Assembly: GCF_003019035.1 (NCBI RefSeq)
Contig: NZ_CP027447.1
Direction: 5' to 3' (one strand)
Length of the DNA stretch: 64,000 nucleotides
Source: Escherichia coli
GTDB lineage: Bacteria > Pseudomonadota > Gammaproteobacteria > Enterobacterales > Enterobacteriaceae
The position numbers were made by a program, and so were the translations under genes. The notes beneath the pieces are model-generated. The model was given only the letters and a program-made list of their open reading frames with translations, did no database searches and was not told the DNA's origin. Position 1 is the stretch's first letter, and every line of letters starts with the position of its first letter. Of this stretch, positions 21,640 through 36,252 are shown in pieces.

Positions 21640-21724
21640 GCCGAAGTGGCGAAATCGGTAGACGCAGTTGATTCAAAATCAACCGTAGAAATACGTGCCG
21701 GTTCGAGTCCGGCCTTCGGCACCA
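21640..21724 (+). tRNA. leuX: tRNA-Leu (anticodon CAA), 85 nt with long variable arm and encoded CCA
   Basis: GCCGAAGTGGCGAAATCGGTAGACGCAGTTGATTCAAAATCAACCGTAGAAATACGTGCCGGTTCGAGTCCGGCCTTCGGCACCA: acceptor stem GCCGAAG/CTTCGGC, anticodon loop tTCAAaa, T-arm GGTTCGAGTCC. Confidence 0.95.
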
Positions 21725-21913: not shown

Positions 21914-23161
21914 ATGGCTCTCACGGATATCAAAGTTAGGACTACCAAGCCCTCTGACAAACCCTTCAAACTTACTGATGGGCAGGGTATGCACCTCCTG
22001 GTCAACCCCAATGGTTCAAAATACTGGCGACTCCAATACCGTTTCGATGGCAAACAAAAAGTTTTAGCATTGGGTGTTTATCCAATGGTCTCTCTTGGTG
22101 AAGCTCGCAGGAAACGAGATGAGGCCAAAAAGTTGGTATCTGATGGTATCGACCCTTCCGAGAAGAAAAAAGCAGACAAGATCGAGCAGAGCGAAGCCCT
22201 GACATTCGAAGCTGTTGCAAGGGACTGGCATACTGCCTGTAAAAGGAAATGGTCAGATTCCCATAGTGAAAGGGTTTTAAAGAGCCTTGAAGACAACCTT
22301 TTCTCTTCCATAGGACAGAGAAAAATAGCCGAGCTTAAAACTAAGGATCTTCTCGAACCAGTCAAAACTGTTGCGGCTTCTGGACGACTAGAAGTAGCTG
22401 CTCGTCTGCAACAACGAACCACAGCAATCATGCGATATGCCGTCCAGAATGGCTTAATTGACTACAATCCAGCACAAGATATGTCTGGGGCAATTACAGT
22501 TGCGAAACGAACCCACAGACCAGCCTTACCATTTGATAGGTTCTCAGAGCTTTTAGAGCGCATTGAAAGCTTTAAAGGTAGGAAACTTACTAAATTAGTT
22601 GTGAAGCTGACATTGCTCATTTTTATCCGTTCCAGTGAACTCCGATTCGCAAGATGGTCGGAGATCGACTTTGAAAATGCGATGTGGACTATCCCTGGAG
22701 AACGCGAGCCATTACCAGGAGTCAAACATTCCCATCGAGGCTCAAAAATGAAGACCCCACACCTCGTGCCGTTAAGTCGTCAGGCCTTAGAACTTCTAAA
22801 AGTCATCAGAGAAATCAGCGGTGAATGCGACCTTGTATTCATTGGCGATCATGATTTCAGAAAACCTATGAGCGAAAACACAGTCAACAAGGCACTAAGG
22901 TCAATGGGTTATGACACAACCGTTGAGGTATGTGGGCATGGTTTTAGAGCAATGGCTTGTAGTGCTTTGATCGAGTCAGGAAAGTGGTCGAGAGATGCTG
23001 TTGAACGGCAGATGAGCCATCAGGAGCGGAACTCCGTTCGTGCCGCATACATTCATAAAGCTGAGCATTTGGACGAGCGTAGGTTGATGTTGCAGTGGTG
23101 GGCTGATTATCTTGATGAAACAACTAAGAGAAGAATTGCACCTTTCGATTTTAATAACTAA
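21914..23161 (+). CDS. P4-family tyrosine integrase (tRNA-associated)
   Basis: 415-aa protein with N-terminal Arm-type domain (MALTDIKVRTTKPSDKPFKLTDGQGMHLLVNPNGSKYWRLQYRF) and C-terminal catalytic region (..HGFRAM.., ..RAAYIH..); sits next to the tRNA as expected for IntB-like integrases. Confidence 0.9.
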   Translation: MALTDIKVRTTKPSDKPFKLTDGQGMHLLVNPNGSKYWRLQYRFDGKQKVLALGVYPMVSLGEARRKRDEAKKLVSDGIDPSEKKKADKIEQSEALTFEAVARDWHTACKRKWSDSHSERVLKSLEDNLFSSIGQRKIAELKTKDLLEPVKTVAASGRLEVAARLQQRTTAIMRYAVQNGLIDYNPAQDMSGAITVAKRTHRPALPFDRFSELLERIESFKGRKLTKLVVKLTLLIFIRSSELRFARWSEIDFENAMWTIPGEREPLPGVKHSHRGSKMKTPHLVPLSRQALELLKVIREISGECDLVFIGDHDFRKPMSENTVNKALRSMGYDTTVEVCGHGFRAMACSALIESGKWSRDAVERQMSHQERNSVRAAYIHKAEHLDERRLMLQWWADYLDETTKRRIAPFDFNN

Positions 23162-24913: not shown

Positions 24914-25168
24914 TTATTTGTTTTTCGCTAATGCTACATATCGTCTATAATATGCAATTGCGCTATATTTTGTCGTATTCATTTTTTCAGCAACTTCTTT
25001 CCATTTTAAACCTGATGATCTTAGTTCAAAAGCAAGCTTTCTTTTTTCAGTTGCTACCCTTTCGTAATTCTCACGGCTAATGCCGTAATATTTTATCACT
25101 GTTGAACGAGATACACCTGCAGCCTTAGCTAAGTCTTTTGCTTTAATTAATTTCCCATGAATTATCAT
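24914..25168 (-). CDS. Small HTH DNA-binding protein (84 aa), co-transcribed downstream of the Rep-like gene
   Basis: HTH-like segment AKDLAKAAGVSRSTVIKYY; its start overlaps the stop of the upstream gene by 4 nt. Confidence 0.5.
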   Translation of the reverse strand: MIIHGKLIKAKDLAKAAGVSRSTVIKYYGISRENYERVATEKRKLAFELRSSGLKWKEVAEKMNTTKYSAIAYYRRYVALAKNK

Positions 25169-26013
25169 AATAATGCCTCCAATGCTATTTCTAATTTTTT
25201 TTGCGTTTTTCTTGTTTTTTTTGCTCTTATTGATTGTATTGTCGAAAATTTCTGAATTGAAAAATTACGCCATGTCCATTTACAAATACTGCTACAAATT
25301 TGTTTTGTCTCTTCATGAGATAATGGATTATGAGGGTTGCTATGATTATTAAGTAAAGTCGCTTTTGATAGCATATCATAAAAAAAACAACGATAGTTTT
25401 TACGTTTTTTAAAACTTAATACTTCTTTATAAGCAATAATTCTTAAATCTTCGAATAAGTTAACGTTGCGGCCCAACCCATGTATAACACTTTTCTTTTT
25501 ACTCGAAATTCTTATTTTGTCTGGGATAAAATCTAAGAGGTATTGTAGATCATATGCTGAAGTATTTGTCCATGTCGTTCTCCATTCATGAATGTTGAGA
25601 GGGTTTTTCATTAAAACATCAGCATAAGCTCTGTCTGCATCTAACCTTTCTGTAAATCCACTCTGAACAATAGCGGCCAATTTTAAAGGCTTATCTCTTG
25701 CCATGTCTGTTTTTAATACCGGATTTTTTAAAGCATAAAGTAAATGAGCATGGCCATTTTTTATGTTTTGTATGATCGTATTTGGTATTGGTAAACCAAC
25801 TAAGTCCCATGCGACCGCTCCATATTTGTGATCTATATCAAAAACCAAACCGTTAATAAAAGATTTGTTATTAAAACAAATATATTTCTTTAGAAGGGCT
25901 TTGTCTTTAGGGGCTCTGTATACCCCATCTCTAAAATCATCACAGCATAAAGCATATTTTTGAATTTGCAGCTTGTATTTTTCTACATTATATATATTTT
26001 CGTCATTTAACAT
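25165..26013 (-). CDS. Replication initiator-like protein (Replicase/primase-like N-terminal domain)
   Basis: 282-aa protein with FDIDHKYGAVAWDLVGLPIPN and NGHAHLLYAL (HxH) motifs reminiscent of plasmid/satellite Rep proteins; family assignment is by motif resemblance only. Confidence 0.5.
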   Translation of the reverse strand: MLNDENIYNVEKYKLQIQKYALCCDDFRDGVYRAPKDKALLKKYICFNNKSFINGLVFDIDHKYGAVAWDLVGLPIPNTIIQNIKNGHAHLLYALKNPVLKTDMARDKPLKLAAIVQSGFTERLDADRAYADVLMKNPLNIHEWRTTWTNTSAYDLQYLLDFIPDKIRISSKKKSVIHGLGRNVNLFEDLRIIAYKEVLSFKKRKNYRCFFYDMLSKATLLNNHSNPHNPLSHEETKQICSSICKWTWRNFSIQKFSTIQSIRAKKTRKTQKKLEIALEALL

Positions 26014-28249: not shown

Positions 28250-29518
28250 CTAAAATCTACATGTAAGGTGGTAATGTTGCCTTGGCGGCACTAAATTGCC
28301 GTCAAGTAAAGGCTCCACAAAAGTGTTTTTGGGATTGATGGGATGGATTTCTATCTTCATCGCTTCAGTGATGACTTGGTGCTTTGCGGGGCGTCTAAGA
28401 ATTGGGATTTTAAGTTGTCTCAGCAGACGATAAATCGTATCAAGGTAAGGGATGGTTTCCATCCATCTGAATGCTGAGACCTCGTAGCTTTGATTAGGCA
28501 TCTCTTTTACGGCTATAGTAGCTATCGCTTTCTTACTCCCTGCTAAAGCTTCCGAGGAACACTTCTCTTCTACATAAGCGACAGCACTTTCGTCTTTACC
28601 TGCATGCCTATCAATAATAAAAGCTTCGAAGGAGTTTTTAACGTTTTCCTTTAATATTTCGTTTGGATTCGCTTTAGTGATAGTTGCTTTTAGGTCAAAC
28701 AGAAAGCCGTTATCGCGTTCTGGTCTATAATCGAGTTTACCCTGCAAGGTCGACCATGAATAACACTTAGCTAATTGCGAAGCTTTGAAAGCAATCCCGG
28801 CGTATTCGAATGAGAAACCATTCATTTTACCTGTAGATGTGATATTGGGTAATGCATTAATATTTTGTTCAAAAAGCTGTTGGACAAACTCAGTGGTCGA
28901 TACTCTTTTAGAAACTAACGTCTCTAAAGCGTTCTGGATGATGGTTTTTGGGCATTGTTCACCTGTCCTTTTCTCTTGCATCGCTTCATTTCGTGTTTTT
29001 TTTCGTTTTAGTTTAGGGCAGGGCAATGCTAAAGAGGTTTTTGTTTTAGGGCCTTTGGTTCTTAGTAGCGAATAGTCGTGTTCAAGCTGTTGGATAATGC
29101 GTGTACTAATCAGGTTTTCATTTTTTCCGAGATAGAGTTTGCCTGTAATACGGTCTATGCGGCTGGCGATAATGTGGATGTGTTGACCGACCGCATCGTC
29201 ATGCAACACGTAGCATCTGAGATGCGTTTCCGAGAAGCCGATGCGCTTCATATAGTCATCAGCTATAGCGGACCACTGAGCATCGGTTAGCACTTCGTCC
29301 TTTGGTAAACGAAGCGAATTGTGCCAAACAGGTTTATCCACATCAGGGCGAAGCGTTTTTGTTAGATTGAATTCAGTGATCAGATCTTTCGCTGCACACC
29401 CATCCATATTTCCCCCGATCACGACAGGAGCTACCCTATGATGAGAATCTGGTTTTAACGTATAGAGGACGATCCCGATAAAATTCTTACCTCTGCGGAT
29501 CTTTTGCATTCCCTTCAT
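28250..29518 (-). CDS. Mobilization relaxase (MobA/MobL-type)
   Basis: Relaxase three-histidine motif HDDAVGQHIHIIASRID (HxDx4HxH); probable start MKGMQKIRRG at 29518 (track ORF extends to 29569); overlaps the upstream mobC. Confidence 0.75.
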   Translation of the reverse strand: MKGMQKIRRGKNFIGIVLYTLKPDSHHRVAPVVIGGNMDGCAAKDLITEFNLTKTLRPDVDKPVWHNSLRLPKDEVLTDAQWSAIADDYMKRIGFSETHLRCYVLHDDAVGQHIHIIASRIDRITGKLYLGKNENLISTRIIQQLEHDYSLLRTKGPKTKTSLALPCPKLKRKKTRNEAMQEKRTGEQCPKTIIQNALETLVSKRVSTTEFVQQLFEQNINALPNITSTGKMNGFSFEYAGIAFKASQLAKCYSWSTLQGKLDYRPERDNGFLFDLKATITKANPNEILKENVKNSFEAFIIDRHAGKDESAVAYVEEKCSSEALAGSKKAIATIAVKEMPNQSYEVSAFRWMETIPYLDTIYRLLRQLKIPILRRPAKHQVITEAMKIEIHPINPKNTFVEPLLDGNLVPPRQHYHLTCRF

Positions 29519-29924
29519 CGGAGTCTCCCCACAAGTCGGCGGTGATGAGATGTAAGCGAAGATCGGCAATTTGTCGCTTCACTGCAAATAGTTCCGTTTT
29601 TGTCAGGTGGCTTCCGGTACTTTTGTTATCAAGGTGGGCAACAATTTTATTTAGTTTCTGTGAAAGGTCAGCTAAAGATCTCCATGCTTTTATATTAATA
29701 GCTGGAACAACACCAGGAAGCGCATTAAGAAAAGATAAACGAAGCCATTCCCCTTTGCGATGCTGGCCACGTTTTTCATTTAGAAGCGTCAGCTCTTTAT
29801 CATTAAGCCTGACACTGACGCAATGATTACGAATTTGCTTGCGTGAAAGCTTCGTTTCGCAAGAGCTTCTACAGGAAGCTCGCGTATTTATAATAGTCTT
29901 ATTGAAATTATTATTACTGACCAT
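29487..29924 (-). CDS. MobC-like relaxosome accessory protein
   Basis: 145-aa basic protein with a MobC-like LSQKLNKIVAHLDNK motif (similar to the NLNQiARhlN signature), immediately upstream of and overlapping the relaxase gene. Confidence 0.6.
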   Translation of the reverse strand: MVSNNNFNKTIINTRASCRSSCETKLSRKQIRNHCVSVRLNDKELTLLNEKRGQHRKGEWLRLSFLNALPGVVPAINIKAWRSLADLSQKLNKIVAHLDNKSTGSHLTKTELFAVKRQIADLRLHLITADLWGDSDEGNAKDPQR

Positions 29925-30053
29925 ATTAACCTCTTTTTAAATATATAAATAAAAATATTATTTTATTTATATAATAAAATAGTCAGATGTCAATATACAT
30001 GTATTATATTGATTTTAACTTTTTTCAACTGAAAGGCGAAAAAACAAGGGGAA

Positions 30054-30085
30054 ACTCAATGAAGCAGCGTAGCGCTTCGTTGAGT
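30054..30085. promoter_or_regulatory. Candidate oriT inverted repeat upstream of mobC
   Basis: ACTCAATGAAGC...GCTTCGTTGAGT near-perfect inverted repeat (11/12 arms) in the AT-rich leader of the mobC-mobA operon. Confidence 0.4.
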
Positions 30086-30148
30086 TAGCCCTTGCTTTAA
30101 CAATATTGACCAAAATCTCTTTTTAATATAAAATGAATCCTAAGAGGG

Positions 30149-30724
30149 ATGGAGGTATACATGCTCAATGATAATAAAATTCGCACTGCATTAATAAATT
30201 TTTTACTGGCTAAAAAACCAGCGCCAGAAAGGATTATTGAAGAATTGCATATCGAGAACGGAAGAGCAATAGCTGATGTCGTAGCAGCATATAGTTATTT
30301 GCATTGCTACGAGATTAAAGGAGAGACTGATTCAATTGGAAGAATCCTTACTCAAGCTAATTATTATAATACTTCTTTCAACAAAATTACACTTGTAACT
30401 ACAAAAAATCATTTAACATGGGCATTAAAGCGTTCCCCATCCTTCTGGGGAATCATATTAGTAGAATTAAAAGATAATAACATTACTTTCAAATATATAA
30501 GGGGGGCTAAAGATAATATTTTCTTCAGAAAAGAAAATGCTTTCATGATGTTATGGAAGGACGAAATGTTGAAGGTAGCAAATGAAGCCTCTGTACCAGT
30601 TAAAAGATCACACACGAGGATGGAAATAGCCGAAATGCTTAGTAGTTCGCTTAAGAAAAGTGATGCTTTGCAAACTATACAAAGCATCATATCTAATCGA
30701 CTAAAATTAAGGGATGCAGTGTAA
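30149..30724 (+). CDS. Hypothetical protein with PD-(D/E)xK nuclease-like signature (191 aa)
   Basis: Motif ..ENGRAIADVVAAYSYLHCYEIKGE.. (hydrophobic-D ... E-I-K) matches the PD-(D/E)xK core pattern; convergent with and overlapping the 3' end of the three-gene operon. Confidence 0.5.
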   Translation: MEVYMLNDNKIRTALINFLLAKKPAPERIIEELHIENGRAIADVVAAYSYLHCYEIKGETDSIGRILTQANYYNTSFNKITLVTTKNHLTWALKRSPSFWGIILVELKDNNITFKYIRGAKDNIFFRKENAFMMLWKDEMLKVANEASVPVKRSHTRMEIAEMLSSSLKKSDALQTIQSIISNRLKLRDAV

Positions 30725-31822
30725 AACAAACTTAATATGTGAAGTCAGCATGGCTTTAATCCAGGATGAGGGATTACCTGCTTTATCTGGTTTTTTAGGC
30801 GAATAACTACTTCTATCATAAACATATTGTTCCCCATATGAGAATGTAGTTGCCCTGAAGAATTTTTGGTCATGGATTATTGTGGCAATATCATAATATT
30901 GACCATTTCCTCTCTCATCATTCTGGAAAGATCCACCTCTAACACAAAACATATTATTCTTATACGTATAAAATACTTTTGGTGCGGAAACTTTTCTAAA
31001 TAGCTTCGGATCTAAATCTATATCAGAATAATCAGGGCTAACAATTCCATAATCCCCGTATATAATATTACCAATTTTCTTTTCGTTAACTAATGTGTCC
31101 CAAATTTTCCACTCCGCTCTCGTGAACGATTTTCTTTGATAGGTTTCAAGTAATGAGGAAATATTAGCCGGTATCGAAGAGGCTGATATAATGCACTTAT
31201 CAAAGTGAAAGTCTTTATTTACATTTAGAATAAAGTATTCAGCCATGTCAGTTAGTCGCTTTATGTCAGTTGGCTGAATGTATCGTAGATCTATAATTAA
31301 GTGCAATTGTTCTACTTTCAGATTTCTAATGATTACCATCATCTTCAAGAGATGCATTTTTGTTATTTTATAGCTCTCAATATCTTCAGCAACTAACCTT
31401 ATGGCTAATTTCCCTCCGTTAATTGATAGGCTATCGTAAACACTTTTATTGTGTTTCTCTAATCGGTTGATACCGATCACAGGAATATATAAGTAATCAC
31501 GAAAAAGAGATAGTATATATTCGTATTGCTCCACTCCATCAATTAATATTTCATCATCCAGGTCATAATTATCTATGTAAAATTCCATGTTTTTAAATAA
31601 AGCTTTATTATCCAATCTCTTTTTGAAAGAATGAGCTTTATTCAATACATTTTCCATTGTTTGATTATTTGATTCTCTTGGTATATCGAAGAATGGAGTG
31701 ATTTGTGTGAAGATTGTAGCATCTTTTTTGTAAAGCTCTTCGAGGGCTTGAGTTTCGTTGCTTTTTGCTTTTAAAAATGGGATATATTTACTCATTGAAA
31801 CCAAGCTCCCTTCTGACATCAA
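30707..31822 (-). CDS. Hypothetical protein (371 aa), third gene of the ImmA-containing operon
   Basis: Long AT-rich ORF whose start overlaps the stop of the ImmA/IrrE gene; no recognisable catalytic motif. Confidence 0.6.
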   Translation of the reverse strand: MMSEGSLVSMSKYIPFLKAKSNETQALEELYKKDATIFTQITPFFDIPRESNNQTMENVLNKAHSFKKRLDNKALFKNMEFYIDNYDLDDEILIDGVEQYEYILSLFRDYLYIPVIGINRLEKHNKSVYDSLSINGGKLAIRLVAEDIESYKITKMHLLKMMVIIRNLKVEQLHLIIDLRYIQPTDIKRLTDMAEYFILNVNKDFHFDKCIISASSIPANISSLLETYQRKSFTRAEWKIWDTLVNEKKIGNIIYGDYGIVSPDYSDIDLDPKLFRKVSAPKVFYTYKNNMFCVRGGSFQNDERGNGQYYDIATIIHDQKFFRATTFSYGEQYVYDRSSYSPKKPDKAGNPSSWIKAMLTSHIKFVLHCIP

Positions 31823-32717
31823 TTGAATTAACTAAACTTGAGAAGATAACATAATTTTTGTGTTTATTTCTTACCGCACCAGCAGCGATTATTGGGTGTA
31901 TATTAAATCTTTCGCAGACAGATATTAGACTATCAGGTTCATTAAATGTCCGAAAGACAGCTCTATTTGCTTCTCTGGGTATCAGACTATCAGCTGCGGC
32001 TCTGTTAGCCTCAATCTCTACGTCTGTTTCTGTGTCAATGTCTAAATCATCGAGGATTGGCGTATCTAATTTATCATAGTGCAGAGCAATGTGGGATAAT
32101 TCATGCATTAATGTAAACCAAAAGTAATCATATCTCGAATATCTTAAACTTAGACCTATGACTGGTGTTTTATTTGGTAAACAAAAGGTACAGCCATCTA
32201 ACTTCATACCTTTGAATGATTTTTCAATTATTAGAATAATACCATATTCTTCTTTAAGGATTCTTGAAATATAATGAATAGATTGTACATCCCTGCTCAA
32301 ACTTGCAATTATTCCGAGGTTTTCAAAATCCAGATCTGTGAAGACCTTTGTATTTCCTTTTAAATAGGTGTTTAATGACTTTTTTTCTATTAATGATAAC
32401 CATAAATTTATGAGTTCAGAATTAGCATCATCTCTTTTTCTAAATAGTTTATTTTTGTTAAATGTTAAATTTTTTGCTACATCAAGTAGGAATTGATTTT
32501 CGTTTTCCATTTCTGGTTTACGGGAAATAATATCTTTTATTTTTTTGCTGTTTTTTATCTTTTGGAAATTTAGTAAAATTTCCAAATCAGACTCACTAAA
32601 CTGATTTGATACAAAGAAATCTTTCTCATGCGGCATTTGAAATTCCTCCGAGAGTTGATGCGACAACCTGTGATGCCTCATAAAATCGGAGATTTTCTTT
32701 TTCATGGTCGACGCCAA
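31788..32717 (-). CDS. ImmA/IrrE-family Zn-metallopeptidase (COG2856-type) with ~190-aa N-terminal extension
   Basis: HExxH motif WFTLMHELSHIALH followed by the third zinc-ligand region EIEANRAAADSLIP, characteristic of ImmA/IrrE peptidases. Confidence 0.8.
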   Translation of the reverse strand: MASTMKKKISDFMRHHRLSHQLSEEFQMPHEKDFFVSNQFSESDLEILLNFQKIKNSKKIKDIISRKPEMENENQFLLDVAKNLTFNKNKLFRKRDDANSELINLWLSLIEKKSLNTYLKGNTKVFTDLDFENLGIIASLSRDVQSIHYISRILKEEYGIILIIEKSFKGMKLDGCTFCLPNKTPVIGLSLRYSRYDYFWFTLMHELSHIALHYDKLDTPILDDLDIDTETDVEIEANRAAADSLIPREANRAVFRTFNEPDSLISVCERFNIHPIIAAGAVRNKHKNYVIFSSLVNSIDVRRELGFNE

Positions 32718-33273
32718 AATCAGTCATGCCAAGATGGTTATAGAAACCCTCTGCACTTGGGAGTGCATGTAGGCAAAAACCAGGTCTATACCCCCAGTTT
32801 GAACAGGCATAATTAATTGTATGTTGGATAAGCTCTTTGCCTACTCCACTATATTTAGGGGTAAAGTTAGGACGAGGACGATTCCAGTATGCTGTTGCAA
32901 TATAATCCACGTAGAAAATTTTATTATTATCAAATCGACTTTCTTTTGGATGGTAAAGAACACAAACACCTTGAACTGCGTCGTTTATTTGCAGAAAAAA
33001 CCACTGATAATCATCACCATTACATTGCAAAAGCTTGCGGCACCAGTCCCAATGCCAATCAGAAAGGCTGTTATCTGCCAGAATTTTCCTTGCTAACTCG
33101 TTATCAGTGGCCATACCGGGGTTAGCAGTAATTAGAGCTGACAATAAATCAGCACGATAGGCACCCCATTTGCTCTGCAAGTCAACCACTTTAGCATAGT
33201 CAATCCCTACGTGAATTTGGTAATCAACTGATTTTCCTGAACAATTTTCAACGACCATAAGCTCCCTTTCCAT
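32626..33273 (-). CDS. GNAT-fold acetyltransferase-like protein (215 aa), first gene of the operon
   Basis: GNAT-like motifs ..FYVDYIATAY..RP.....GVGKELIQ.. and ..SAEGFYNHLGMTDFG..; its stop overlaps the start region of the ImmA gene. Confidence 0.5.
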   Translation of the reverse strand: MERELMVVENCSGKSVDYQIHVGIDYAKVVDLQSKWGAYRADLLSALITANPGMATDNELARKILADNSLSDWHWDWCRKLLQCNGDDYQWFFLQINDAVQGVCVLYHPKESRFDNNKIFYVDYIATAYWNRPRPNFTPKYSGVGKELIQHTINYACSNWGYRPGFCLHALPSAEGFYNHLGMTDFGVDHEKENLRFYEASQVVASTLGGISNAA

Positions 33274-33505: not shown

Positions 33506-33529
33506 GTTCGAGTCCGGCATCCGCACCAC
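33506..33529 (+). repeat. Degenerate direct repeat of the leuX 3' end (candidate att site at the distal island boundary)
   Basis: GTTCGAGTCCGGCATCCGCACCAC versus leuX GTTCGAGTCCGGCCTTCGGCACCA: 13 identical bases followed by 8 of 11 matching with one gap. Confidence 0.5.
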
Positions 33530-34203
33530 ACTGTATGCAAATCGAGTCGCTCAAGAGCGGCTTTTTTTGTGTCTGAAATCACCCATATCCGTGCAGTATA
33601 TAGGCCTGCCAGAAAAGCAATTCAGTATTCTTCATTTTGTAGTCGATGGTCCCAAGTTTGCTCTGGCTGGAAGCTGCATCGTCCACATTACGTGGGCAGG
33701 GTGGTTTCGCTATGCTACTTGAACGTTTTGACCATGTGGCTCAGGTAGCATATCAAAAGACGTCATTTTGTCTCCACGCCCACCTTGGTGAACATTCAAT
33801 AAATAGTTTCGGTCGAGAGCAGTTATGTAGGGCTAGCAGACGAAATGCGCAGACATCTTGTTGAAGACAATTTTACTGACCACCTGAGAACGCTATTCTA
33901 CCGAATAATATTTATTATCTTGGTGAATAATGATGATTACCTGTGTAACTATGGTTTTATGCTGATGGGACCGGCAGTACAATTTCTGTAGTGTACTCGC
34001 AATTTCAGGTCTCTGGCGTTTATTCTGGTGCAAAGGATGTATGTGATGAAAACTTTGCTACCATGCCATTAAATGCGACCAATATCGGATTATCCATCAG
34101 TTGCTTGTTGTAGATTTCATTGGTTATAAAAATGCAAGGTGTAAAAGATGAAATTTATAATTATTAGTTAAGTGGCTAGTTTTATAGTAATTTAGACAAT
34201 AGG

Positions 34204-36252
34204 ATGTATGGAAAAATGGAAAAAGTTTATGATACCACTAGAATTAGTAATCTTGCTAACGACCCGAAACAGTTTTGTTCTTTTTTTTGTGAGTACATAA
34301 AAAGAGATGATATTAGTATAGATATCGCCTTGGATGTGCTGAGAATATCTTCCATCTATTATAATAGATTTTCAGTTCAGACTGAAGTTGAGTATAACAA
34401 TACATTCAAAAAATGTATTAATGAGCTAGTAAACTCATTTCCTGATAACATTGAACTAATCTCTGAGTTCGAGAGTCAATGTAAAATTATGCATGATATA
34501 AATAATTCTTTCTTTGCGGCTACAAAATGTGCTGGTATTTGGCGTAAAAATACAAAAAAATCACATGCATTAATACTTAATCTCATCATGTTTTGTGAGA
34601 TGTTTTTATCATTATTATCATCCTTGGTTGTGGTCAATGATCCTAAAAAAATGAAGAGGATTTTTCCATTGTTTATCGTTTCTGAAAATATTAATATTCA
34701 TGCTGAACCTGATATCGAATATTTTCGAGTTATCGATAGGGCATTTGATGAGGTAGCCAATTACACCGGAAGAATATTTTCTTATTTACGGACTCATGGG
34801 CCATTGAAACTAACTTCTTGTGTGAATAAACAAACCTTGCTTTCAATGGGAGGGTACCTTAATGAGTGGAATGTTTTTGACTCATTAAGCAGAGTAAGAG
34901 ACTTTTTCAGACTAAGTAGTGCAGTATTTACAAAATTGGATAATAACATTTACTCTCTTGAGGTTGATAGTTTTTGTTTATACCGAGATTATGAGATTGC
35001 AAGAAATAGACTAATGATGAGAGCGTCACATCTATATAGCGAAGTTCATGAATTTAGTAACAAACATTTTCATCTAAATAGTTGGGTAAAGGATCATATG
35101 CCATCTTACTTAAATTCTGATGGCGTTTTTAGCTCATTTCATCTAAGCGAGTTGGAAAATATGTCTCCTGATGACCTTCATGAAGAATATGGGAATATAT
35201 CATTATTTAATTGGGTGCACGCTTATCAATGTTTAGTCGAGTTATCTAAAGAAGAAATGAGCAAAAGATTTTCATCGACAAAACCTATACCCCTACAGTT
35301 GGATCGCTGGCTGATCATAAAAAGCCGTGAGAGTTGGTTATCATTCTTTCAACGTAAGGGGATTGCAGTAGATGCAGCAAAAAAACTGATAGATTATTTT
35401 ACCTTCAATTCAAAATCACATGATCTTAATGATTGCCCATTTATTCCCTGTATGGACGGTTTATGCTTAATGCCTGCATTAATAGCAAATAGCTCAGTGA
35501 CTCGCTCTCTAATGTCATTATTTGGTTCCAAAAAAATTTCTCAAGCAAGTAAAGGGCGATTTCATGAGCAACAATTTATAAAACAAGTTCGTGATGCGGG
35601 GATTAAAGCTTCTCCAATTGATGCTCATGCTAATTATCAGTGCGATTGCGTGATTCTCCTGGATGATTGTTTGATTTTTACAGAACTAAAATCAAATGGT
35701 CAACCAATATATTATGGTAAGTACTATCAGCAAGTGTGTAACATCGTTGGAGATAGCTCATTAATACATGATCATAATAATAAATTTATGCGTTCTTATT
35801 TTCAACAAATAAATCGAATTTCTGAACATTATCTTAATCATCTTAATGTGATCATTAAAGAATTCGAACTACCATCAACATGGCAACCCAAAGGTGTGTA
35901 TAAGCTTATTGTTACTACAACTATGCTCGGTGGGAAATATCATGTGGATGATACATATGTAGCGGACAAATATGCATTATCTAGTTTTTTTCAACGAATA
36001 CCTGGAGTGATATATCAAACAAATGAAAATGGAAAAATGGCGAAAAATATCATTGATGGGTTTGAGTGTTGCGAAGGGGAAATCACTATCGATAAGTTTA
36101 TAGATTATCTTTCCTCTTTGCCCAGTATTAATGCTGTACGTAAAAATATAAAAAAATTAACTTATAGTGTTCGATTTAATGAAAAATTAGTCCATCACCC
36201 TTATTATGATTCTTGGGCTTTTGGCCCATATATTCGTAAGGGAAATGATTAG
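34204..36252 (+). CDS. Large hypothetical protein (682 aa), AT-rich, possible C-terminal PD-(D/E)xK-like motif
   Basis: Uninterrupted 2 kb ORF with strong terminator downstream; C-terminal stretch CDCVILLDDCLIFTELKS has a D...E.K pattern; otherwise unrecognised. Confidence 0.6.
   Translation: MYGKMEKVYDTTRISNLANDPKQFCSFFCEYIKRDDISIDIALDVLRISSIYYNRFSVQTEVEYNNTFKKCINELVNSFPDNIELISEFESQCKIMHDINNSFFAATKCAGIWRKNTKKSHALILNLIMFCEMFLSLLSSLVVVNDPKKMKRIFPLFIVSENINIHAEPDIEYFRVIDRAFDEVANYTGRIFSYLRTHGPLKLTSCVNKQTLLSMGGYLNEWNVFDSLSRVRDFFRLSSAVFTKLDNNIYSLEVDSFCLYRDYEIARNRLMMRASHLYSEVHEFSNKHFHLNSWVKDHMPSYLNSDGVFSSFHLSELENMSPDDLHEEYGNISLFNWVHAYQCLVELSKEEMSKRFSSTKPIPLQLDRWLIIKSRESWLSFFQRKGIAVDAAKKLIDYFTFNSKSHDLNDCPFIPCMDGLCLMPALIANSSVTRSLMSLFGSKKISQASKGRFHEQQFIKQVRDAGIKASPIDAHANYQCDCVILLDDCLIFTELKSNGQPIYYGKYYQQVCNIVGDSSLIHDHNNKFMRSYFQQINRISEHYLNHLNVIIKEFELPSTWQPKGVYKLIVTTTMLGGKYHVDDTYVADKYALSSFFQRIPGVIYQTNENGKMAKNIIDGFECCEGEITIDKFIDYLSSLPSINAVRKNIKKLTYSVRFNEKLVHHPYYDSWAFGPYIRKGND

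Follow-up and report, generated by a model that had tools for sequence, protein, structure and literature searches.

A cII-family protein with a predicted PD-(D/E)xK nuclease fold is encoded convergently with a beta TIM-barrel protein in a mobile four-gene cassette of Escherichia coli

We analysed a gene related to cII of bacteriophage P4 in a 64,000-nucleotide (nt) stretch of an Escherichia coli genome (assembly GCF_003019035.1, contig NZ_CP027447.1; hereafter, the window), where it stands tail to tail with a gene for a beta-family protein. An earlier note on this DNA, made from the letters alone, had placed here a 191-amino-acid (aa) protein with a nuclease-like core. The open reading frame (ORF) is indeed present (30149..30724, plus strand, 191 aa), and the IADVV and YEIKGE motifs are both seen in its translation. 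The gene, however, likely starts at ATG 30161, giving 187 aa, because a Shine-Dalgarno sequence read from the DNA, GGAGG (30151..30155, plus strand), lies 5 nt before this codon, PGAP places the start there, and the alignments of homologues begin with MLND...; the alternative start on the same strand, ATG 30149 (191 aa), was judged less likely. The ORF, the model match and PGAP annotation described below, and homologues labelled PF26915 define the gene as a cII-like (sce7726-family) gene at 30161..30724 (plus strand, 187 aa and a stop). Residue numbers refer to the 187-aa protein; adding 4 converts them to the numbering of the 191-aa ORF.

The family assignment was clear from profile searches. 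The protein scored 149.5 bits against the NCBIfam model NF033832 (sce7726 family; cut-off 70), covering model positions 1-182 of 184, and matched the PADLOC model 'cll' (PDLC02989) at 7e-23; close homologues in a large protein database carry the label PF26915 (Phage_P4_cII). By tblastn, P4 cII and the window protein share 25% identity at 96% coverage (E 4e-7), and RefSeq names both P4 cII and an identical copy of the window protein 'sce7726 family protein'. A Pfam-A scan, with a library that predates PF26915, returned zero matches even at E <= 10, and sequence searches of the PDB, started either from the protein alone or from a profile, gave chance matches only. A word-indexed search found 303 homologues, and an exhaustive profile search found at least 5,693 clusters (50% identity, E <= 1e-3) from bacteria and phages, 1,088 of which reach E <= 1e-30. 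Together, the NF033832 score and these two counts rule out a chance ORF. Four complete E. coli chromosomes share the same 3.5 kb at 98.0-99.6% identity, with the RefSeq names sce7726 family protein, beta family protein, ImmA/IrrE family metallo-endopeptidase and GNAT family N-acetyltransferase; megablast against plasmids gave no match. The cII gene itself is thus not new, since its family is already named and annotated and is part of a validated defence system, P4 gop-beta-cII, which guards E. coli from lambda and P1 (PMC9122126). The earlier note had the type of fold right but did not see this named family.

A restriction-endonuclease (PD-(D/E)xK) fold is well supported for the cII protein, with a putative catalytic activity. 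In an alignment of 68 sequences, which takes in P4 cII, Rac-SA53 cII, Mx4 p30 and gp32 of Gordonia phage Powerball (22-27% identity to the query), E28, D39, E51, K53, D57, R61, Q65, G97, L131, E135 and R180 are invariant, and Y69, 97% conserved, completes a QxxxY motif with Q65. The active-site residues E28, D39, E51, K53 and Q65, whose codons lie within 30242..30355 on the plus strand (30242-44, 30275-77, 30311-13, 30317-19 and 30353-55, respectively), are invariant also in an alignment of 124 sequences. The conserved D...(D/E)-x-K motif of the superfamily is represented by D39 and E51-x-K53, with E28 and Q65 in addition. The AlphaFold2 model (predicted local distance difference test, pLDDT, 95.9) has an alpha-beta-beta-beta-alpha-beta core, with E28, D39 and E51/K53 on strands 1-3 and Q65/Y69 on the next helix, and a helical C-terminal domain (residues ~124-186); the protein is basic (isoelectric point 9.6). 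For P4 cII, an HHpred match to PF06319 (MmcB-like) at 99.76% is listed in Table S3 of Rousset et al. 2022. The invariant residues, the modelled core and this match jointly support the nuclease-fold reading. The proposal of a PD-(D/E)xK-like core was thus borne out by structure prediction and fold comparison, and the residues it had pointed to in IADVV...YEIKGE proved to be D39, E51 and K53, invariant in homologues. Identity with Cas4 was considered and rejected: the protein has one Cys only, hence no Fe-S cluster motif, and the Foldseek match was weak (E 0.016).

The convergent gene on the minus strand, a 371-aa ORF that ends at 30707, had also been noted earlier, but not its identity as a relative of the P4 'beta' protein. 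It matches Pfam Beta_protein (PF14350) at 2.7e-53 and, near full length, the PADLOC model PD-Lambda-2_C at 2.6e-47. From the PGAP start, the beta-family gene (30707..31795, minus strand) encodes a TIM-barrel protein of 362 aa; the ORF reaches 31822. Its AlphaFold2 model (pLDDT 94.5) is a TIM barrel without a specific nearest relative, and Y13, L17, E23, D178 and D257, three of them acidic, are invariant. The identity to P4 beta is 16-17%, and the PADLOC 'beta' model was not matched. When the beta protein was searched by tblastn against plasmids and phages, the Rac-type pair alone was recovered; a literature search on Beta_protein/PF14350 returned unrelated papers only.

No gop-like gene lies upstream of the window beta gene; ImmA/IrrE and GNAT-like genes are found there instead, both on the minus strand. 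The ImmA/IrrE gene (Peptidase_M78; 31788..32636, PGAP coordinates) matches Pfam at 3.2e-10 and the PADLOC model PD-Lambda-2_B at 3e-47, in the latter case over model positions 175-396 of 402 only, that is, the peptidase half, and Pfam and PADLOC scans detected no helix-turn-helix (HTH) domain in its product. The first operon gene (32626..33258) appears weakly GNAT-like (Acetyltransf_10, 6.5e-5; 'GNAT family N-acetyltransferase' in PGAP); in the PADLOC scan it did not match PD-Lambda-2_A, a model with which genuine A proteins reach 162-165 bits. PD-lambda-2 itself (Vassallo et al. 2022) is composed of a HigB-like A, an Xre-ImmA/IrrE B and a beta-like C.

As the earlier note had stated, the coding 3' ends of cII and of the 371-aa gene overlap, by 18 nt (30707..30724; listed as the last six sense codons and the stop of each gene). 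The same overlap is present in the RefSeq annotation of the 98.0-99.6% identical E. coli loci, and among non-redundant homologous loci it is above zero in 40/46, with a median of 20.5 nt; with distant family representatives included, its length varies from -27 to +140 nt. Upstream of cII, TTGACC-17-TAAAAT (30106..30134, plus strand; 10/12 consensus) is a candidate sigma-70-like promoter, a consensus match that was joint best in the region scanned and is 27 nt upstream of ATG 30161. The beta operon, in turn, has a terminator-like hairpin found by pattern match (30661..30689, minus strand; 12 pairs, tail CTTTTCTT), which lies 18 nt past the beta stop, within cII codons ~167-177, and whose minimum free energy corresponds to z -4.8 versus shuffles. 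Equivalent 60-nt windows of homologous loci fall at z < -2 in 27% of cases versus 6% of controls (Mann-Whitney p = 3e-4). On the plus strand, no terminator-like site was seen after the cII stop up to 31733. These signals would fit overlapping 3' transcript ends and a possible mutual interference of the two units; that the convergent overlap regulates expression is a tentative suggestion.

To follow the gene across genomes, a cII motif was used to scan a single genome of each species, which gave 45 loci from Gamma-, Beta-, Delta- and Epsilonproteobacteria, Verrucomicrobia, Planctomycetota and two Asgard-labelled contigs of metagenome-assembled genomes (MAGs). The four-gene cassette is present in 42 of them, once with an insertion sequence between cII and beta; in the remaining loci, beta is split into two ORFs (one), the locus is degraded (one) or an insertion sequence cuts it right after cII (one). 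In pairwise comparisons, cII diverges in step with beta, ImmA and GNAT (Mantel r 0.88-0.90), at a strength similar to that within the operon (0.89-0.93), and cII is the most conserved of the four, with a mean pairwise identity of 43% versus 36-38% for the others. Co-conservation with the neighbouring operon, which the earlier note had named as a check, is therefore evident.

The pairing with beta extends to loci with other genes upstream. In P4, gop and beta lie on one strand and cII is convergent, with an annotated terminator between; prophage Rac-SA53 has cII and beta only, overlapping by 41 nt; and in Gordonia phage Powerball, gp32 (annotated 'exonuclease') overlaps the beta-like gp33 by 89 nt. 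On Agrobacterium/Sinorhizobium plasmids, a PDC-M63A-like small gene, an Xre-ImmA gene (matching PD-Lambda-2_B at e-74 to e-78) and beta face a convergent sce7726 gene with a 47-nt overlap. Four distant representatives, arbitrary picks from the low-ranking end of the top 150 family matches, all have a convergent overlapping beta (4/4). Because the pairing persists while the genes upstream of beta vary, the invariant unit, judged by gene order, is beta plus cII, and the upstream genes are interchangeable. The suggestion that cII belongs with a peptidase operon thus stands insofar as cII is kept with the operon, but the conserved unit is cII with beta, not cII with the ImmA peptidase.

The cII protein has an N-terminal PD-(D/E)xK domain, with an intact metal-binding/catalytic set (E28, D39, E51-x-K53 and QxxxY), and a basic C-terminal helical domain behind it. 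We propose that it is the partner of the beta TIM-barrel protein, encoded convergently and transcribed as a unit of its own. The two genes would form the conserved core of modular, mobile-element-borne anti-phage or abortive-infection cassettes, a family to which P4 gop-beta-cII belongs together with cassettes that have B and C genes matching PD-lambda-2 models; in the window, the GNAT acetyltransferase and the HTH-less ImmA/IrrE peptidase complete this core to a four-gene cassette. The sequences and models show the family, the fold, the invariance of the catalytic residues, a pairing of cII with beta and the operon that is conserved and co-diverging, and a defence-island or satellite-hotspot setting. 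We infer that cII may be an active Mg2+-dependent nuclease, a DNA-cleaving effector or co-effector controlled by beta and the upstream module, and that the tail-to-tail overlap, with the beta-operon hairpin inside the cII codons, may couple the expression of both units. It is highly probable, taken jointly, that cII belongs to this family, has the nuclease fold with its active site intact and is functionally linked to beta. That cII is an active nuclease and the effector or co-effector of an anti-phage cassette is an evenly balanced call, and the composite explanation as a whole (nuclease partner of beta, four-gene cassette, effector role and coupling) we hold with moderate confidence. A broader reading is rather doubtful: a large, modular superfamily of mobile anti-phage systems may have the beta/cII pair as its ancient catalytic core, in which cII cleaves DNA and is gated by beta and by transcript coupling, swappable front ends (Gop, GNAT+ImmA, PDC-M63A-like+Xre-ImmA, possibly HigB+Xre-ImmA, or none) sense or add backup toxicity, and cII has been overlooked in PD-lambda-2-type systems.

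Several observations weigh against the proposed role of cII. The literature searched contained no experiment on any cII-family protein. The validated PD-lambda-2 clone spans 228,989-232,396 of ECOR42 contig QOYB01000002 and ends just 396 bp after the gene C stop codon, so a complete convergent cII cannot be on it; if the PD-lambda-2 locus has a cII, defence against lambda-vir does not depend on it. Of the homologous loci, only about one in four has a significant embedded hairpin, and both the promoter and the terminator calls are consensus matches only. The pairing also has exceptions: phage Mx4 carries a cII-family gene without beta, Myxococcus and Hymenobacter are the only clear beta-less cases in the genome scan, and one locus, on a Sulfitobacter plasmid, has Xre-ImmA and beta without cII.

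Some of these points would suit an independent, self-sufficient single-gene nuclease that merely travels beside the beta operon: the gene faces the operon from the other strand and has a promoter-like site to itself, family members in Mx4, Myxococcus and Hymenobacter do without beta, and the PD-lambda-2 clone is functional although too short to hold all of a cII gene. We consider this unlikely, since the pairing with beta holds across Proteobacteria, Verrucomicrobia, Planctomycetota, actinophages and E. coli prophages despite changing upstream genes, the coding ends of the two genes usually overlap, and cII co-diverges with the operon genes as tightly as those do with one another. Accordingly, of the two roles the earlier note had left open, a fourth component fits better than an independent effector. 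Less likely again is what the name cII hints at, a non-catalytic regulator or antitoxin-like factor that binds DNA by means of its nuclease fold and so controls the beta operon or the host element. Non-catalytic members are known in the PD-(D/E)xK superfamily, the helical C-terminal domain is basic, and the gene is divergent from the mobilization (mob) genes and adjoins a long inverted repeat; yet all canonical catalytic residues and QxxxY are invariant in 68 homologues down to 22% identity, a pattern unexpected for a pure binding scaffold, which is thus disfavoured.

Convergent transcription of cII might instead act at the RNA level, as an antisense or interference brake on beta, the protein being secondary. 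The conserved tail-to-tail overlap, the terminator-like hairpin of the beta operon inside the cII ORF and the P4 terminator between beta and cII would agree with such a brake, but it is made quite improbable by the protein being the most conserved of the four, with invariant catalytic residues, and by the wide variation in overlap length. A housekeeping MmcB-like DNA-repair endonuclease is the least probable of all and can be nearly dismissed, as Pfam-A gave no match at E <= 10, PF06319 included, and the gene invariably sits next to beta on a mobile element, prophage, satellite or plasmid. The conserved pairing and the invariant catalytic residues suit cII as the nuclease partner of beta better than they suit any of the four alternatives.

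An ~11.8-kb element inserted at tRNA-Leu(CAA) (leuX; 21640-21724) carries the cassette as its last cargo. The element encodes an integrase (21914-23161) and, on the minus strand, a replication initiator (25165-26013), a relaxase (28250-29569) and a small accessory gene (29487-29924); its right end, an imperfect repeat of the tRNA 3' end (GTTCGAGTCCGGC...CACCA), lies near 33507-33530. The unit is an integrative mobilizable element with the four-gene cassette as its sole obvious cargo. Between the mobilization genes and the cII promoter-like site there is a 25-nt inverted repeat (30041-30098; 84% complementary, 8-nt spacer) that may be the oriT of the element. Just past the right end, a 682-aa ORF (34204-36252) had no NCBIfam match and a weak PADLOC match to PDC-M29B (E 0.0012).

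Related cassettes are carried by other elements. The chromosomes of E. coli VE-T9 and A27 have P4-like satellites (primase, psu, delta and an integrase at leuX) with a diverged GNAT-like/ImmA/beta/cII cassette (positions 4956-8151 of the locus), which matches the same four gene models, occupies the gop-beta-cII position of P4 (a defence hotspot) and shares 66% DNA identity over the aligning part of the cII gene. One P4-satellite arrangement with this type of cassette is contained in Table S1A of Rousset et al. In the Acinetobacter plasmids pAC1530 and pNDM-AP_882, the NDM-1 transposon Tn125 (ISAba125) lies inside the beta gene of a PDC-M63A-like/Xre-ImmA/beta/cII cassette (positions ~3754-5661 of the pNDM-AP_882 locus). 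The N-terminus of beta is annotated there as a 66-aa 'hypothetical protein' (E 4e-13); a paper on these plasmids draws the sce7726 gene among the Tn125 surroundings. Another variant beside a beta/cII pair (1821-3423 of locus L074), with a gene order unlike that of the window cassette, encodes a 338-aa protein with a HEIGH metallopeptidase motif and then a 202-aa protein, for which no Pfam match was found. Two ~4.3-4.4 kb MAG contigs labelled Asgard/Lokiarchaeota hold a complete bacterial-type four-gene cassette and may represent binning contaminants or horizontal transfer.

Both gop-beta-cII and PD-lambda-2 are validated anti-phage systems and have so far been treated as unrelated toxin-antitoxin-like loci. 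With respect to the literature searched, three things are new here: the cII-beta core that links gop-beta-cII to cassettes with PD-lambda-2-type B and C genes; a widespread four-gene GNAT-ImmA-beta-cII variant, an acetyltransferase-peptidase version of which no description was found; and the conserved tail-to-tail overlap with its embedded terminator-like hairpin. The analysis supplies a candidate effector, the putative nuclease cII with its D39/E51/K53 site, and a candidate regulatory feature, the convergent overlap with the embedded terminator. Since PADLOC models catch B, C and cII, and not the first gene, detection tools may miss the complete GNAT-ImmA-beta-cII system.

Among known systems, P4 resembles the window in having a homologous cII with the same invariant E/D/ExK/Q, convergent to a beta-family gene and carried as cargo at leuX. 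P4 cII, however, has 264 aa, with ~80 extra C-terminal residues, versus 187 aa in the window, and a 27-nt gap with a terminator separates the two P4 genes in place of the 18-nt overlap. The partner operon of P4 consists of gop, for a toxin with two transmembrane segments, and beta, without the GNAT and ImmA genes of the window, whose beta matches the PADLOC PD-Lambda-2_C models and not that of P4 'beta'. Mutating the beta/cII terminator of P4, as Ghisotti and colleagues are said to have found in 1990, impairs beta function. The toxicity of gop-beta-cII is triggered by the phage gene orf184 (bioRxiv 10.1101/2023.04.06.535777).

In PD-lambda-2, B is toxic alone and neutralised by A, and defence requires C, the beta homologue (PMC9519451). 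As in the window, its ImmA-type peptidase gene precedes a beta gene, and both loci belong to mobile elements of E. coli; the first gene of the window, in contrast, is GNAT-like and not HigB, and its B lacks the N-terminal HTH part. PD-lambda-2 was also defined as three genes without cII, whereas the window and related B/C-type cassettes have a convergent cII. A distant blastn search of E. coli genomes for the three-gene PD-lambda-2 locus gave short HTH matches only. Modules of HigB and Xre-ImmA with full-length PD-Lambda-2 A/B matches are usually two-gene units without beta and cII, as were the homologues found on plasmids and in Vibrio; because such pairs mostly lack beta or cII, detection of PD-lambda-2 by A and B only would mix two architectures. 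The pairs often lie beside type I restriction-modification genes or ThiF/multiubiquitin loci.

Among nucleases of this fold, the MmcB-like, or DUF1052, proteins (PF06319; PDB 3dnx, SPO1766) have 12% identity to the window cII and no Pfam-A sequence match with it; cII differs from them by its extra C-terminal helical domain and by residing in mobile defence cassettes, whereas they are chromosomal SOS/repair genes. Can2/Card1, Cap4, HamA of Hachiman and NucS are PD-(D/E)xK defence nucleases controlled by a partner or a ligand. Unlike these, the window cII has neither a CARF/SAVED sensor nor a helicase partner. Its partner is a TIM-barrel protein, encoded by a convergent and not by a co-transcribed gene.
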